From: a bacterium
GTDB taxonomy: Bacteria; Patescibacteriota; Dojkabacteria; SC72
NCBI GenBank assembly: GCA_021463465.1
Contig: JAJTYH010000003.1
Location: 75,869-139,868, forward strand
Length of the DNA stretch: 64,000 nucleotides
Direction of reading: 5' to 3'
Under the pieces are notes generated by a model that was not told where the DNA came from, did not search any database, and saw nothing but the letters and a program-made list of their open reading frames with translations. The position numbers and the translations under genes were made by a program. Each line of letters opens with the position of its first letter. Positions within the stretch are counted from its first letter, which is position 1. Positions 2,589-38,797 of the stretch are shown one piece after another.

Positions 2589-3172
2589 ATATCTCTAATC
2601 TCAGCAAAGGAGGCAAAAGATCGAACCCCTACACTCCTCGCACTTTCTAAATTAAGTAGCGAATCATCTACATACACTACCTCCTTTATCTTCAAACCAT
2701 TCTGGTCAATAACATTTTTAATTGCCTCACTGTCAGGCTTAACTAACCCGGTTTCGCAACTAAAATACGCTCCGTCTGTATTGCCAAAGATTTCAGGAAA
2801 GGCTTCTTTGTAGAACTGCGTTCTCTCTTTGAAATTATTTGAAAGGATATAAACTTTCTGACCATTAGCTCGCGCTTCTTTGCAAAAATCTATTACATCA
2901 CTCTGGAGTTTTTCGCCACTAAACCACCAGTCAAAAAAATCTTTTTCATCAACTTCAATTCCCCACCTCTCTAAATATGGTTTCCACAATGAAAAAGTCC
3001 TGGGAGCACCAGGTAGTTTAACAATATCTTGTATGGTTTTTAGGGCTCCCAACACTTCTTCAATAGGAGCATTCCACTTCTCCTTCATTCGGTTTGAAAG
3101 ATAGTCGCTTTGTACAAAAATTCCATTGAGATCAAGAATATATGCCTTTATCATATTACTTTTTAATTGCAC
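2585..3172 (-). CDS. HAD-superfamily hydrolase (subfamily IA-like)
   Basis: Motif I-like ILDLNGIF, motif II ILSN, Lys in GLVKPD and motif IV VYVDDS. The second Asp of motif I is Asn. Confidence 0.5.
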   Translation of the reverse strand: MQLKSNMIKAYILDLNGIFVQSDYLSNRMKEKWNAPIEEVLGALKTIQDIVKLPGAPRTFSLWKPYLERWGIEVDEKDFFDWWFSGEKLQSDVIDFCKEARANGQKVYILSNNFKERTQFYKEAFPEIFGNTDGAYFSCETGLVKPDSEAIKNVIDQNGLKIKEVVYVDDSLLNLESARSVGVRSFASFAEIRDI

Positions 3173-32715: not shown

Positions 32716-32976
32716 GTGCCACCTCGAAGAAGACTAGACCAAGTTTCTGATTTTGCTTTTCAAGTACTTAGGGCAAACACCGAGCAAGGTTTTTTCAAAG
32801 GAGCTAGAGTAAAGGTTGCGGTTGAAATTGTTACCGATGCAACGGGTACTATTGCTGTCGGTGAAGTGGGAAAAATAACTAAAGTTTGGCCAGATGATAC
32901 AGTTGGAGTCAGGTTTGACGATCTTCCCTTGCTTGGAGAAATAAATATAAATGTTGCCTATCTTGAAGCCATTTAA
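32716..32976 (+). CDS. Hypothetical small protein (86 aa), beta-rich
   Basis: ARVKVAVEIVTDATGTIAVGEVGKITKVWPDDTVGVRFDD suggests a small beta-barrel (SH3/KOW-like) fold. No family assigned. Confidence 0.3.
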   Translation: MPPRRRLDQVSDFAFQVLRANTEQGFFKGARVKVAVEIVTDATGTIAVGEVGKITKVWPDDTVGVRFDDLPLLGEININVAYLEAI

Positions 32977-33006
32977 TCTTTCCTCTATATATCGTATAAT
33001 CCCTTA

Positions 33007-33241
33007 ACCGATTGATAGAGCTTGTCACTCTAGATGGTCTGGAAGGAAAAAGGGTTTTCTTTAGTAGAATCCAGCAGAAGGTAACTGTAAATATACCGCT
33101 GTATTAAACGTACAGAATGAGCTTGAGCCAGAGATGATTCAAGAAAGTGAGGTGGTAACACGGAAAGTCCAATCCGTCCTTACAGTACATATTCAGTATG
33201 TATTTAAGGGCGGATTTTTTGTTAAATTAAAGAGCATAAAT
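33007..33241 (+). promoter_or_regulatory. Putative T-box riboswitch leader of valS: T-box-like antiterminator competing with an intrinsic terminator
   Basis: Candidate -10 TATAAT at 32995-33000. T-box-like GTGAGGTGGTAACACGG at 33147-33163: helix A1 GUGAG/CUUAC, a UGGU-containing bulge, helix A2 ACGGA/UCCGU. The 3' strands of A1/A2 overlap the 5' arm of the terminator. GUC (Val) triplet at 33024-33026. Confidence 0.5.
33174..33220 (+). terminator. Intrinsic terminator hairpin plus T-run immediately upstream of the valS ATG
   Basis: CCGTCCTTA(CAGTACATA-ttcag-TATGTATT)TAAGGGCGG followed by ATTTTTT, with an inner extension TACATA/TATGTA. Confidence 0.6.
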
Positions 33242-35539
33242 ATGGCAAACCAAGCACAGGAGATATCAAAAGCGTTTGATAACACAAAAGAAACTGAAAT
33301 CTATTCTCTATGGAAGGAAAGTGGGTATTTTAATCCCGATAAAATGAAAGAGCTCTTGGGCGATAAGTCTAAGAAACACTTCGGGATTCCCTTGCCTCCT
33401 CCAAATGCTAACGGTGATTTACATTTAGGGCACACATGCGGTTACGCCTTCCAGGATTTAATGGGACGCTACAATCGAATGACTGGTCACCCTACCCTCC
33501 TTTTGCCAGGTAAGGATCATGCAGGTATCCAAACCGAAGCTGTTTTCACTAAACTTTTGGAGAAAGAAGGTAAAAGTAAGTGGGATATGGGTCGGGAAGA
33601 ATTCTACAAGCAGTGTTACGAATTTTGCATGCGAATGATGACTAATGCTATGAAGCAAGAGAAGCGGATCGGCCTTTCCGCTGATTGGTCACGGCACTTA
33701 TTTACCCTAGATCCTCGTTTAACTGACATTATTTATTCGACCTTTTATAAACTGCTTGATGAAGGTCTTATATATCGAGGTAAGCGAATTACTAATATCT
33801 GTCCGCACTGTAAAACAGCCCTAGCAGATATCGATACCGAGCGAATGGAGATTCGAGGCATTTTTGCTTATATCGTCTATCCATTTGAGGAAGAGGCTGA
33901 CAGATCTGAGGCTAAAAAGCTTTGGGGGCACGAAGGGATTGTGGTTGCTACGACGCGTCCTGAAACTATGTTAGCTGACACTGCAGTTGCTGTAAATCCT
34001 AAAGATAAAAGATATAAGAAGTTTGTAGGTAAAAAGGTAATGTTGCCGTTCATGGACAAGGCTCTACCAATTATTGCCGATGATCATATTGATATTGAAA
34101 CAGGTACAGGTGCTTTAAAAGTGACACCCGCTCATTCCCCTATCGACTATGAAATCGGCTTGAGACACAAATTGGATGTGGTGAATGTGATTAACGAAGA
34201 AGGTAAGATGACTGGTCCTATTCCGGAGCGATTTAAAGGAATGGGTACTATCGAATGTTCTAAGACGATTGTTAAAGAGTTAGATGGTATGGGATTACTA
34301 GTTAAAATTGAGAATATCAAGCACGAGGTTGCGGTGTGTGAACGATGTAAAACCCCTATCGAACCGATTATATCTAAACAGTGGTTTGTTGATATGAAGC
34401 CTTTGGCTCGCGAGATCTTAAAATCACTTAAAAAAGGTGAAGTTAAAGTAATACCTTCTGGGCAGCAGAAAGCCTTAGAGCACTTTCTGAACAATATTCA
34501 GGACTGGTGCATCTCCCGTCAGTTATGGTGGGGGCATAGAGTTCCGGTTTGGTATAGCGGAGGTAAAGAACTTTACGATTGGAAAATAGACAATCCGGAG
34601 AAAAGCATTGCTGAGTTTACGAAAGAGACCGGCAAGCCTATTAAAGGTACAGGTAATGTTTTGAAAGGCGATTTACAACCTGAAACAGATCCAGATTGGA
34701 AAGGTAAGCCTTCTGATCTATGGCTAGAAGCAGAAACAGATATGTTTGATACTTGGTTTAGTTCAGGTCAGTGGCCATTCTCTACTCTTAAAGGATTGGG
34801 AGGAGATAACTTTGAGCAGTATTACCCAGCTGATGTTATGGAGACCGCAAGAGATATCCTTTTCTGGTGGGTAGCAAGACAGCTTATGCTAGGGAAATAT
34901 ATAACAGGTAAAGTACCATTCCATACCGTATTTTTGCATGGCCTTATTCTGGCAGAGGATGGTAGTAAGATGTCTAAATCCAAGGGAAATACTAAAGAAC
35001 CAACTGAGATATTTGATAGATATGGCGCTGATTCGCTGCGGCTTTGGTATTACAATGAATCATTGCCAGGTTCAAACGTCCCGCTTCGTGAAGAGAAGAT
35101 TAAAGGTAATCGGAATTTTGTGAACAAGATTTGGAATGCCAGTCGATTTGTTTTAATGAATGCTGAGGCATTGGGGCTAAAGTCTTTACGATCCGCTGAT
35201 GTGCCATTAAACAGTGATCGCATTAAGAAAACTGAGGAACATGTAGAAAGGATTAAAAAGTATATTGAGAGTTACCGTTTCAATCTTGGGGCGGAAACCA
35301 TTAGAGAATTTTTTTGGCACACCTACTGTGATAAGTGGATTGAAGAAATTAAAAAGGAAATTTCTGAGGCACCTGAAGGTTCAAAAGAGCGTAGCAGTAG
35401 TATTGCTGAGCTGGTTTATATCCTGAAAGAGAATCTTAAGATTATGCATCCATTTATGCCATTTGTTACTGAAGCCGTGTGGCAAGAACTGAAAAAAATC
35501 GGCCTGGCAGATGGGATCTTAATGGTTGAGCAAATCTAG
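33242..35539 (+). CDS. valS: Valine--tRNA ligase
   Basis: PPPNANGDLHLGH (HIGH), GKDHAGIQTE, WCISRQLWWGHRVP and KMSKSKGN motifs. Start placed at ATG 33242, after the terminator. The ORF-track start at 33134 would translate through the terminator hairpin. Confidence 0.85.
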   Translation: MANQAQEISKAFDNTKETEIYSLWKESGYFNPDKMKELLGDKSKKHFGIPLPPPNANGDLHLGHTCGYAFQDLMGRYNRMTGHPTLLLPGKDHAGIQTEAVFTKLLEKEGKSKWDMGREEFYKQCYEFCMRMMTNAMKQEKRIGLSADWSRHLFTLDPRLTDIIYSTFYKLLDEGLIYRGKRITNICPHCKTALADIDTERMEIRGIFAYIVYPFEEEADRSEAKKLWGHEGIVVATTRPETMLADTAVAVNPKDKRYKKFVGKKVMLPFMDKALPIIADDHIDIETGTGALKVTPAHSPIDYEIGLRHKLDVVNVINEEGKMTGPIPERFKGMGTIECSKTIVKELDGMGLLVKIENIKHEVAVCERCKTPIEPIISKQWFVDMKPLAREILKSLKKGEVKVIPSGQQKALEHFLNNIQDWCISRQLWWGHRVPVWYSGGKELYDWKIDNPEKSIAEFTKETGKPIKGTGNVLKGDLQPETDPDWKGKPSDLWLEAETDMFDTWFSSGQWPFSTLKGLGGDNFEQYYPADVMETARDILFWWVARQLMLGKYITGKVPFHTVFLHGLILAEDGSKMSKSKGNTKEPTEIFDRYGADSLRLWYYNESLPGSNVPLREEKIKGNRNFVNKIWNASRFVLMNAEALGLKSLRSADVPLNSDRIKKTEEHVERIKKYIESYRFNLGAETIREFFWHTYCDKWIEEIKKEISEAPEGSKERSSSIAELVYILKENLKIMHPFMPFVTEAVWQELKKIGLADGILMVEQI

Positions 35540-36373: not shown

Positions 36374-38797
36374 CTATCTAACTATTTCGGAGTCAGGGAA
36401 AAATTTTACAACATTCTCTTCAAGTAACTTCACAGCTTTCTCCACTTCCTCTTTTTTCATTTTGTCGTGACCTTGGGCAATTATATATACGTTTTTAGTT
36501 TTAGTTGTCACTTTGGTACGCTCTCCTTGTTTAACATCTAACCTACAAACAATCCCCGTGCTGTCTATATACGCATACTCCCCACTCTCAGCATATGTTT
36601 CAATTTTTCCAATTGCTTCATATTGGGTTTTCTCTTTTAGTACATCTAACTGTATCTGGTCGTCTAGCTTGTCAATATCGTGAGCACCAAATGATATTCC
36701 AGTCACGTAGGAAATAGCGTTGTAGAGGTCGACAAAAGTATTAACCTTCACTTGTTTACCCTTTGCAAAGTTCTCTCTTAGCCCAGCAGATGAAGAAGGG
36801 ATGCCTTTAACCTTGGAATATTGGTCGTGTAGCTTCATGTATTTATCATCAATATCTTTCAATTGTTTGGGATTAACAATCTTTAAATACTCCTCTATCC
36901 AGGTATTCAGATTTTTGTTGGAGCGACTGACTTTTAAACCTTTGAATTTGGTAGTGACAATTGGTAGAGCGTTTAACTCAGGCGCAACAACTAAGTTAGC
37001 GGCATTGAAGTTATTACCTCTTTTAGGCTGTTCCAAACTTCCATCTACAGCTTTAAGATCATCTGTGTATTCAAGTTTCTCAAAAAGTATAGTTGGTGTT
37101 TTGATTTTTATACCAGAGGGGAGTTTATTGAAATACCATTGATCTATGTACTTTGATACTCTCCCTTTGGTTCTCACCTCCTCTGTTGGATCGTAATCAT
37201 CGGTTACGCCTAATATTTCGCCTAACCGTTTTACAGTATTAGGAGTGAAAGGTTTAAGGAGTACTCGGAAAGAGTTCACCAACTGAATTGTGTTGTAGAT
37301 TGTTTTCTCAGCCGCACTTTTTTCACTTTTAATAGTTATCCAAGGTTGTCTATCATTGAAGTATTTGTTAGCGAAATGGCCCAACTCTAGTATCAGTTCT
37401 GCTGCTTTAATAAATTCTGACTTCTCTAGTGACTGACCAACTAAAGAGAAAGTTTCGTTGATCTTATCCTTAACTTCAGGCTCTAGTTCGTTATCTGGAA
37501 CAATCCCATTGAATTTGGTGTGAAGGAATGTAAGAGAACGATTGATAAAGTTACCTATATTAGCAACAAGCTCATTGTTATTAGCGTCAATAAAATCTCT
37601 CCAGATATATTCTCTATCATGATTTTCTGGTCCATATCTTACGAAGAAGTATCGAATTAGGTCGGGATCATATTTTTGTAATAGTTGGTCTATACCTATG
37701 CCTGTACCATCGCCCTTGGACATTTTCTTCCCCTTGAAAAAGAGCATCTTATTAGCCGGAACATCAAATGGTAAATTCAATGGCTTTGATGCACTCTCAC
37801 CTGGAAGTAGATATTTTTTTTCGAGCTCAGTTCCATATTTCTTGTTATATGCTAAAAGTTCAGCTGGCCACATTATGGTGTGGAAAGGTACATTACCTCC
37901 AGCTATAAAGTAGTAGTGCTCGCATTCCGGATTCTTCCAAAACTCTTCCCAGAGCGCTGGATTCTTTTGATTTGCTGCCCATTCGATTGCGGCTGAGAGA
38001 TAGCCAACTACAGCTTCAATCCATACATATATAACTTTGTCCTCCCACCCTTCAACAGGTACCTTCACACCAAATGTTAGGTCACGGGTCACCGCTCTGG
38101 CTTCAAGTCCCTGCTTAACCCAACCTTTGGTAAATTCTCGAACCCATTTTCTCCATCTTCGGTTGTTAGCTCTAACGTACTTAGAGATATCTCCTTCGAG
38201 TTTCTCTAAGGTCATGTAGAAGTGCTTGGTTTTTTTAAGTTTTGGTGTCGAATCAGATAGAGTACTGTAAGGGTCGATAAGATCCGTTGGGTTTAAGAAG
38301 GCACCGCACTGCGGACACTCGTCGCCTCTAGCATTTGGTTCCTTGCAATTCGGACATGTACCACGAACATATCGATCGGGTAGGAATCTTTTAACTTTCG
38401 AGTCGTAATACTGTTCCGATTCTCTAACTTCTAAATATCCTAATTCCTTTAAAACAAGGAATATATTCTGTACCACAGCCTTATGATTATCTGTTGTGGT
38501 TCTAGTGTAGTTCTCATAGATAAATCCGAGTTTTTCAAAAGTCTTAACAATTTCGTTGTGATATTTGGCAGCTAAATCTGCAGGGGTCATTTTTAACTCC
38601 TCTGCCTTAAATATTACGGGTGTACCATGGCTGTCACTACCCGAAACCATAAGTACATCATGTCCTCTTAGTCGGTGATAACGTGCAAACACGTCGCAAG
38701 CCACATTTTGACCAGCTAAATGTCCTAAATGGATGTTGCCATTAACGTAAGGCCATGAGACTCCGATGAAGATTTTTTTCGGGGTAGGATAATCCAT
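36374..38797 (-). CDS. metG: Methionine--tRNA ligase with ~270-aa C-terminal extension containing a B3/B4-like tRNA-binding domain
   Basis: Class I HIGH-region (YVNGNIHLGH), Zn knuckles (CPNCKEPNARGDECPQCG) and KMSKGDG (KMSKS). C-terminal VDLYNAISYVTGISFGAHDIDKL resembles the PheT B3/B4 core. Confidence 0.85.
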   Translation of the reverse strand: MDYPTPKKIFIGVSWPYVNGNIHLGHLAGQNVACDVFARYHRLRGHDVLMVSGSDSHGTPVIFKAEELKMTPADLAAKYHNEIVKTFEKLGFIYENYTRTTTDNHKAVVQNIFLVLKELGYLEVRESEQYYDSKVKRFLPDRYVRGTCPNCKEPNARGDECPQCGAFLNPTDLIDPYSTLSDSTPKLKKTKHFYMTLEKLEGDISKYVRANNRRWRKWVREFTKGWVKQGLEARAVTRDLTFGVKVPVEGWEDKVIYVWIEAVVGYLSAAIEWAANQKNPALWEEFWKNPECEHYYFIAGGNVPFHTIMWPAELLAYNKKYGTELEKKYLLPGESASKPLNLPFDVPANKMLFFKGKKMSKGDGTGIGIDQLLQKYDPDLIRYFFVRYGPENHDREYIWRDFIDANNNELVANIGNFINRSLTFLHTKFNGIVPDNELEPEVKDKINETFSLVGQSLEKSEFIKAAELILELGHFANKYFNDRQPWITIKSEKSAAEKTIYNTIQLVNSFRVLLKPFTPNTVKRLGEILGVTDDYDPTEEVRTKGRVSKYIDQWYFNKLPSGIKIKTPTILFEKLEYTDDLKAVDGSLEQPKRGNNFNAANLVVAPELNALPIVTTKFKGLKVSRSNKNLNTWIEEYLKIVNPKQLKDIDDKYMKLHDQYSKVKGIPSSSAGLRENFAKGKQVKVNTFVDLYNAISYVTGISFGAHDIDKLDDQIQLDVLKEKTQYEAIGKIETYAESGEYAYIDSTGIVCRLDVKQGERTKVTTKTKNVYIIAQGHDKMKKEEVEKAVKLLEENVVKFFPDSEIVR

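Follow-up and report, generated by a model that had tools for sequence, protein, structure and literature searches.

T-box riboswitches are leader RNAs that sense tRNA. Ultrashort members of the family were reportedly described by Sherwood et al. in 2015 from ileS leaders of Actinobacteria (M. tuberculosis, M. smegmatis, and N. farcinica), and structures are available for actinobacterial ultrashort ileS T-boxes (6UFG, 6UFM). Reviews link architecture to mode of action: transcriptional T-boxes are paired with a long Stem I, whose elbow contact is said to hasten the capture of tRNA ahead of polymerase arriving at the terminator, and ultrashort ones with translational control of ileS in Actinobacteria (PMC7583486, PMC10482949, 10.1101/2023.02.28.530422). 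A 2023 paper assigns to Class III those T-boxes whose short Stem I lacks the interdigitated T-loop motif (IDTM), whose specifier lies in an apical loop of 5–6 nt, and which require Stem II; in its account, Classes III and IV “mostly regulate translation initiation”, with actinobacterial ileS leaders as the examples (PMC10482949). According to a 2023 preprint, every member of the ultrashort class regulates ileS and responds to tRNA-Ile, and does so translationally (10.1101/2023.02.28.530422). The present work concerns the leader of valS, which encodes valyl-tRNA synthetase (ValRS), in a 64,000-nt stretch (referred to here as the window) of contig JAJTYH010000003.1 from a member of the Dojkabacteria, a lineage of the candidate phyla radiation (CPR). 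Very probably, this leader is a valine-specific T-box, ultrashort in Stem I, and acts on valS through attenuation of transcription.

Databases and literature offer few precedents. In TBDB, the “isoleucyl translational” class II model was applied only to Actinobacteria and to class I hits whose Stem I is truncated, and candidate phyla are absent from the TBDB supplement. Riboswitches figure solely as engineering tools in a 2024 perspective on Patescibacteria, and gene regulation in the CPR has been described as virtually unknown (PMC11665869). A literature search for T-boxes in Patescibacteria, the CPR, and Saccharibacteria found no paper. In the papers that could be reached, the ultrashort build is described only for translational ileS T-boxes of Actinobacteria; earlier primary T-box papers may possibly hold a prior description.

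Identification of the valS leader as a T-box

A 265-nt non-coding gap separates the end of the upstream open reading frame (ORF), at 32976, from the valS ATG at 33242. When the whole window was searched with Rfam at gathering thresholds, a single tRNA was reported, and the T-box leader model (RF00230; gathering score 93 bits) went unmatched. With permissive filters, RF00230 matched positions 33003–33184 over the full model (positions 1–219) with 38.3 bits and an E-value of 3.6e-7 on a 401-nt region, or 5.8e-5 over the whole window. The valS leader was the sole T-box-like match in the window, and a search of the same 64 kb for further decoding modules found none. Its low score is explained by the alignment, in which 7 nt stand in place of 76 model positions of distal Stem I.

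Eight Dojkabacteria relatives scored 26–44 bits with the same model. As a control, the canonical long-Stem-I valS T-box of Oscillospiraceae bacterium WX1 reached 58.5 bits. Since this leader also falls below 93 bits, the gathering cut-off is uninformative here, and the curated threshold of the Rfam release used misses genuine T-boxes. All tested members score below it, so that pipelines applying the gathering threshold would miss them. In addition, the leader fold is more stable than those of shuffled sequences (z = -3.0). The identification as a T-box rests on the full-model match, on covariation of the helices, on the invariant GUC and UGGU, on the overlapping folds at the 3′ end, and on linkage to valS.

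Anatomy of the leader

All features described here lie on the forward strand. The sequence contains a -10 hexamer, TATAAT, at 32995–33000, with a predicted transcription start at about 33007. In 16 of 19 homologous leaders, a perfect TATAAT, frequently in the form TGnTATAAT, precedes the G of GUC at a fixed distance of 24–27 nt. The promoter has no good -35 hexamer. A simple consensus scan for promoters and terminators listed neither the -10 box nor the terminator of this leader; the latter probably lay outside the scan criteria (at most 20 pairs counted, loop of 3–8 nt).

The ultrashort Stem I (33007–33038) was delimited by the RF00230 alignment, RNAalifold, and covariation in a covariance-model (CM) alignment. 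Its C-stem consists of three pairs (A33007-U33038, C33008-G33037, and C33009-G33036) and is followed by a K-turn-like bulge at 33010–33013 and by tandem G33014.A33034 and A33015.G33033. The top helix of 5 bp (33016–33020 with 33028–33032) closes a 7-nt apical loop, CUUGUCA (33021–33027). Within this loop, the putative specifier GUC (33024–33026), a valine codon in keeping with the downstream valS, is followed by the conserved purine A33027.

Stem II (33039–33074) comprises a lower helix (33039–33043 with 33070–33074) and an upper hairpin (33049–33062), between which lie the S-turn strands AGGAA (33044–33048) and AGUAGAA (33063–33069). The Stem IIA hairpin and IIB pseudoknot follow directly at 33075–33097, as indicated by covariation of IIB: the IIA pairing is CAG/CUG (33075–33077 with 33085–33087), and that of IIB is GGUA (33080–33083) with UACC (33094–33097). 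An extra hairpin, designated X (CUGUA/UACAG, 33099–33115) and recognized by covariation in a MAFFT alignment, stands between the pseudoknot and Stem III. The latter (33122–33143) aligns to Stem III of RF00230 and is flanked by the purine-rich linkers AAUGAG and AAAG.

The T-box core and antiterminator occupy 33147–33183, on the evidence of conserved sequence, covariation, and folding. The sequence GTGAGGTGGTAACACGG is read at 33147–33163; its portion AGGUGGUAACACGG, at 33150–33163, is the conserved T-box sequence with the 7-nt bulge bearing 5′-UGGN-3′ inside the antiterminator helix. Helix A1 pairs 33147–33152 with 33178–33183, and helix A2 pairs 33160–33164 with 33173–33177. Between them, the bulge UGGUAAC (33153–33159) presents UGGU, the complement of a tRNA 3′-ACCA end. 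An intrinsic terminator with its U-tract, supported by folding and by per-sequence conservation, spans 33171–33220. Its 21-bp hairpin pairs 33171–33192 with 33196–33216, including CCGTCCTTA (33174–33182) with TAAGGGCGG (33205–33213), after which comes ATTTTTT at 33214–33220, with the U-tract at 33215–33220.

Conservation and covariation

Conservation was assessed on alignment A1, made with MAFFT from the window leader and 17 relatives (18 leaders in all), onto which a structure drawn by hand in window coordinates was projected. Over the whole structure, 77.6% of cells were paired, as against 66.1% in shuffles, and covariation was 0.332 versus 0.163 (none of 500 shuffles was as high), with slid controls reaching at most 0.224. 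Stem II was misaligned by MAFFT (48–52% paired), a fault remedied with a CM alignment of 21 sequences to R1, a model of the decoding module. In this alignment, which is fitted to the model and hence biased toward the structure, pairing in the decoding module reaches 95.2%, 11 of its 12 pairs show compensatory changes, and its covariation is 0.759 versus 0.324 in shuffles and at most 0.204 in slid controls.

Individual helices behave similarly. In the CM alignment, the Stem I C-stem is 92% paired, the Stem I top helix 97% (compensatory changes at all five pairs), and the lower helix of Stem II 95% (four of four pairs compensatory); these same three helices were given independently by RNAalifold on the 5′ module. 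The upper helix of Stem II is variable in length, with a hairpin in 15 of the 18 leaders. Taken alone, the IIB pseudoknot is 79.5% paired versus 44.3% in shuffles (0 of 500 as high), all four of its pairs show compensatory changes, and its covariation is 0.32, compared with no more than 0.11 in slid controls. These values come from the column test, used in place of a low-powered per-sequence shuffle test (4.9 bp vs 4.0 bp). Five relatives (L020, L021, L024, L027, and L080) have no pseudoknot, and all of them possess hairpin X; two others, L049 and L062, have the pseudoknot and no hairpin X. In the MAFFT alignment, the Stem I top helix is 96.7% paired (again five of five pairs compensatory), hairpin X 72% (three of five), Stem III 91% (five of five), antiterminator helix A1 92% (three of five), and helix A2 90% (two of four).

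Across the 18 leaders, the specifier columns G22, T23, and C24 never vary; they are followed by a purine in 16 leaders and by C in two, giving a loop consensus of N-U-W-G-U-C-R. Also without variation are the K-turn A, the U of the apical loop that accompanies GUC, the S-turn bases A42, G43, T63, A64, and A66 (the AG / UA.A strands), and the T-box core AGGTGGTA.C.CG, UGGU included; AGGUGGUA.C.CG is likewise among the invariant columns. In solved T-box structures, such sites are the positions that contact tRNA or build the groove that receives it (PMC7583486, PMC10482949).

Expression platform

The 5′ arm of the terminator consists of the 3′ strands of A2 and A1, and positions 33173–33183 are common to both folds. 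Folded alone, the window antiterminator has a free energy of -11.4 kcal/mol, with the 7-nt bulge seen, and values across the 18 leaders run from -6 to -11 kcal/mol. With the terminator hairpin, the discriminator region of the window reaches -28.5 kcal/mol (-25 to -38 across the 18 leaders). Since only the base of the terminator stem aligns in MAFFT, the terminator was assessed by folding each sequence. Every one of the 18 aligned leaders has a hairpin of 20–23 bp followed by U5–8 in the same register overlapping the antiterminator, and at the base of the stem, a run of six successive pairs forms in 16–18 of the 18. The start codon lies outside the hairpin, 9–26 nt past the U-tract among relatives and 22 nt past it in the window. 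No Shine-Dalgarno-like sequence occurs within the hairpin; any such sequence lies past the U-tract. The 3′ region thus appears to have the design of a transcription attenuator rather than that of a Shine-Dalgarno sequestrator.

At 20–23 bp, the Dojkabacteria terminators are unusually long. In one deep-branching member of the group (L042, 2700–2990), the terminator is replaced by a very long palindrome of tandem GCCATTAGGATCC-like repeats, part of which is N-masked.

An initial annotation of the window, made from its letters alone, had proposed a T-box upstream of valS, and the features that it quoted (TATAAT, GTC-A, the T-box-like sequence, the terminator arms, the ATGs, and the 265-nt gap) are all present where it placed them. 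Its observation is confirmed and its interpretation supported: the T-box reading is borne out by the full-model RF00230 match (E = 3.6e-7) and by covariation in relatives, the mutually exclusive terminator and antiterminator recur as overlapping folds in all 18 aligned leaders, the proposed valine specifier GUC is invariant in the same leaders upstream of valS, and the supposition of a reduced-genome lineage outside the Firmicutes agrees with a host in the Dojkabacteria of the CPR. It had named an RF00230 hit above threshold as a check; the E-value is significant, while the score of 38.3 bits is below 93, a cut-off that is invalid as a criterion since the WX1 control itself scores 58.5. The annotation erred in taking Stem I for a canonical one in which the specifier loop is internal. 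The ultrashort Stem I with an apical specifier, which it missed, is the more interesting feature.

Distribution in Dojkabacteria

About 62 Dojkabacteria valS loci and outgroups were scanned. The leader was found in 19 of these Dojkabacteria loci, with motif search, nhmmer, and covariance model R1 in agreement. It lies directly upstream of valS in 14 loci, and a small ORF of 138–219 aa intervenes in the remaining five (L080 2428–2985, L024 2496–3002, L020 2571–3002, L027 2342–2998, and L049 2564–2977). These intervening ORFs are acidic in the N-terminal stretches printed. Placed as they are between the T-box terminator and valS, they would therefore be co-regulated by tRNA-Val.

On a neighbor-joining tree of ValRS, the leader occurs in most of the deepest Dojkabacteria branches, including that of the window, and is scattered in the crown group. 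This pattern suggests that it is ancestral in Dojkabacteria, with repeated loss and long-term retention. Most of the leader-less genomes (e.g., L014, L015, L023, L028, and L044) have a conserved -10 box, TGATATAAT or GGTATAAT, that lies immediately upstream of position 3001 in these loci and ends 7–15 nt before the valS ATG. So short a spacing implies that their valS mRNAs have little or no leader. The T-box leader would behave as a presence/absence cassette between promoter and start codon.

Related leaders in other lineages

Two further valS leaders from the CPR, L079 2833–3000 (Shapirobacteria) and L071 2866–3000, have a K-turn hairpin, a GUC apical loop, and an S-turn Stem II, and score 36 and 27 bits, respectively, with R1. 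Neither was matched by RF00230 at E ≤ 1, and no terminator or clear UGGN-bulge antiterminator was found in them; their 3′ halves could be assigned to no discriminator. In L079, a hairpin covers the Shine-Dalgarno sequence. These leaders may be a translational or otherwise derived T-box form of other CPR lineages, or relics.

A 20-base Stem I signature common to L071 and L079 was used to probe metagenomes and gave 17 matches. Twelve of these are chance matches inside high-GC coding sequence and are not matched by R1. The other five are complete leaders with an ultrashort Stem I, a Stem II, the core GAGUGGUACCGCGGG, and a terminator with U-tract. These predicted valine-type, ultrashort-Stem-I T-boxes are located on metagenome contigs at L081 3726–3932 (minus strand), L083 1780–1960 (minus), L087 149–360 (plus), L088 5416–5607 (plus), and L093 2063–2231 (minus). 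They score 42–63 bits with RF00230, again below 93, with 72 Stem I positions replaced by 4 nt, and 28–37 bits with R1. The ValRS of the metagenome carriers is full length (872 aa) and 73–79% identical to proteins of Oscillospiraceae, Ruminococcaceae, Sporobacter, and Papillibacter, from which it follows that the hosts are Firmicutes. The gene that follows the leader in L087 and L093 is of the HTH type instead of valS, and that of L087 is fused to cupin and acyl-CoA-synthetase-like regions. No valS T-box was found in Sporobacter termitidis, a cultured relative of the Oscillospiraceae carriers.

Stem I is a hairpin of 4–5 bp in all 19 Dojkabacteria and all five Oscillospiraceae leaders, and the ultrashort, terminator-coupled form, which arises independently on valS in Oscillospiraceae, therefore extends beyond the CPR. 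In another cultured relative, Oscillospiraceae bacterium WX1 (L100 1644–1929, GCA_038405045.1), an L088-type discriminator stands behind a long Stem I. By this comparison, the Oscillospiraceae ultrashort form looks like an ordinary Class I valS T-box from which distal Stem I has been deleted.

Proposed mechanism and alternatives

We infer tRNA binding, the sensing of charging state, the docking of Stems I and II, and the point of termination from the known mechanism of the family. Transcription would start ~7 nt past the -10 box, and the nascent leader would fold the K-turn hairpin, offering GUC-A in its apical loop. The S-turn Stem II, supported by the IIA/B pseudoknot, would dock beside Stem I, and the groove thus formed would receive the anticodon stem-loop of tRNA-Val(GAC); the tRNA elbow would find no distal Stem I domain stacking on it. 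If the tRNA were uncharged, its 3′-ACCA would pair with U33153-G-G-U33156 of the bulge and stabilize the weak antiterminator, and polymerase would read into valS. If it were charged or unbound, the much stronger overlapping terminator would form, with a stop near 33220.

Several points weigh against this scheme. According to reviews, a T-box that acts on transcription generally depends on the elbow-binding IDTM to capture tRNA quickly while the RNA is being made (PMC7583486), which raises the question of how a leader without an IDTM makes its decision in time. The RF00230 score of the window leader lies below the curated threshold, and column-wise covariation of the upper terminator is weak (64% paired in MAFFT, with several measures equal to shuffles). 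About two thirds of the sampled Dojkabacteria genomes have lost the leader, which is hence dispensable. As for the ligand, the tRNA-Val(GAC) gene of the window genome is not in the 64-kb window, and a search of 60 loci for tRNA-Val found only one, a CAC isoacceptor from another genome (L042), and no GAC. The discriminator of this CAC isoacceptor is A73, and its gene does not encode the CCA end, in agreement with the invariant UGGU.

A T-box acting on translation, in which the long 3′ hairpin would sequester the ribosome-binding site instead of terminating transcription, would agree with the published ultrashort and Class III T-boxes, which are translational (10.1101/2023.02.28.530422; “mostly” in PMC10482949), and with L071 and L079, where similar decoders occur without a terminator and, in L079, with a hairpin over the Shine-Dalgarno sequence. 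This interpretation is nevertheless very unlikely, given the U5–8 immediately after the hairpin in 18 of 18 aligned leaders, the position of the ATG past the U-tract (9–26 nt), and the absence of both ATG and Shine-Dalgarno-like sequence from the hairpin. Moreover, in the five genomes where another ORF comes first downstream, hairpin and U-tract are unchanged. We likewise attach little credence to the idea that the leader is a decaying relic of a canonical T-box, its tRNA sensing gone and its hairpin a constitutive attenuator or functionless. Such decay would fit the resemblance of the Oscillospiraceae ultrashort form to a deletion derivative of a long-Stem-I valS T-box, the roughly two thirds of Dojkabacteria without the leader, and the reported essentiality of distal Stem I in transcriptional T-boxes (PMC7583486). 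However, the ultrashort form is retained in 19 species-level Dojkabacteria genomes across the deepest branches, and every helix is kept by compensatory changes while specifier, S-turn, and bulge stay invariant in 18 leaders, which would be unexpected of a relic. An unrelieved terminator of -25 to -38 kcal/mol before an essential, single-copy synthetase gene would also be harmful.

Some synthetase genes are autoregulated through tRNA-like operators, as exemplified by thrS of E. coli, and the reading frame from ATG 33134 runs uninterrupted across the leader, with several valine codons. These facts could speak for an element that is no tRNA sensor at all, and instead an operator for ValRS or another protein, or a leader-peptide attenuator translated from 33134. 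However, the upstream extension is unconserved, with in-frame stops in 7 of 12 relatives; the apical loop holds the codon GUC rather than a valine anticodon, with no mimicry of an anticodon arm; and the RF00230 match and invariant UGGU bulge are specific to T-boxes. The sequence evidence therefore largely refutes this proposal, which we regard as extremely improbable.

If the leader is indeed a functional T-box attenuator of valS, contact with the tRNA elbow would not be required for co-transcriptional sensing of tRNA. Among native riboswitches that sense tRNA, it would then be the first to be described from the CPR. Judging from sequence, certain ultrasmall CPR bacteria would have retained, on an essential synthetase gene, an RNA that monitors tRNA charging.

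The valS gene and its neighbors

The valS gene at 33242–35539 (forward strand) encodes a valine--tRNA ligase of 765 aa that matches the NCBIfam valS equivalog NF004349 with 815.6 bits. The match spans profile positions 4–687 of 860, and the C-terminal coiled-coil domain is missing. An NCBI entry, “valine--tRNA ligase [bacterium]” (P0001), is 100% identical over the full length of the protein, and the next-closest matches, from Candidatus Dojkabacteria (candidate division WS6), share 63–68% identity. Dojkabacteria ValRS proteins in general are 746–825 aa long and have no C-terminal coiled-coil (PF10458 is not listed for them), compared with the 872-aa Oscillospiraceae enzymes.

In-frame ATGs are read at 33134 and 33242. 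The initial annotation chose the second, and rightly so: because the exact protein is already in NCBI and the extension from 33134 is interrupted between U-tract and ATG in those 7 of 12 relatives, the true start is evidently ATG 33242, as in public annotation. In every relative, the start is the first ATG past the U-tract.

One gene downstream of valS lies metG (807 aa; 36374–38797, reverse strand), whose C-terminal extension matches part of the pheT profile. Searches for a T-box and for a decoding module upstream of this metG gave no match. In leader-less Dojkabacteria genomes, valS lies near a divergent gene of ~565 aa, the counterpart of the RNase J gene of the window.

Comparison with known T-box classes

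The window leader has features of several T-box classes. Compared with Class III ileS T-boxes of Actinobacteria, as known from published descriptions, it shares a short K-turn Stem I without an IDTM, an apical specifier followed by a purine, a Stem II with the S-turn purine string that leads directly into the IIA/B pseudoknot, a Stem III, and a UGGN bulge that would read the tRNA 3′ end. It differs in being apparently specific for valine (GUC, valS) instead of isoleucine, and in having an intrinsic terminator as its platform rather than a Shine-Dalgarno sequestrator. Dojkabacteria and Oscillospiraceae, rather than Actinobacteria, carry this build. Its apical loop counts 7 nt, or 5 nt if a non-Watson-Crick C.A pair is taken to close it, as opposed to 5–6 nt, and an extra hairpin is inserted between the pseudoknot and Stem III.

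With Class I (the B. subtilis tyrS type, RF00230, and the WX1 leader L100), the element has in common the K-turn base, the S-turn Stem II, IIA/B, and Stem III, as well as the conserved T-box sequence, competing antiterminator and terminator folds, a specifier ending in C, and the putative control of an aminoacyl-tRNA synthetase gene. Unlike Class I, it has no distal Stem I (AG bulge and distal loop) with which to stack on the tRNA elbow, and because this part is missing, a terminal loop, not an internal one, carries the specifier. Class II glyQS leaders are likewise transcriptional T-boxes that are reduced relative to Class I. However, the reduction is the opposite one: glyQS keeps a long Stem I and loses Stem II and IIA/B.

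On balance, though by no wide measure, the leaders described here would constitute an unrecognized T-box subclass that is ultrashort in Stem I, terminator-coupled, and valine-specific, apparently ancestral in Dojkabacteria and present in Oscillospiraceae as well. The decoder-only CPR relatives L071 and L079 may represent a further derived form. A conserved, covarying, terminator-ended valine ultrashort T-box in two unrelated phyla contradicts the pairing of architecture with mode of action, and it offers a natural system for gauging the kinetic weight of the elbow contact, for which the long-stem WX1 leader and a short-stem L088-type leader form a matched pair. In terms of the known classes, the window element thus appears to join a Class III decoder to a Class I expression platform, with specificity for valine, in a phylum for which the reachable literature holds no T-box report.

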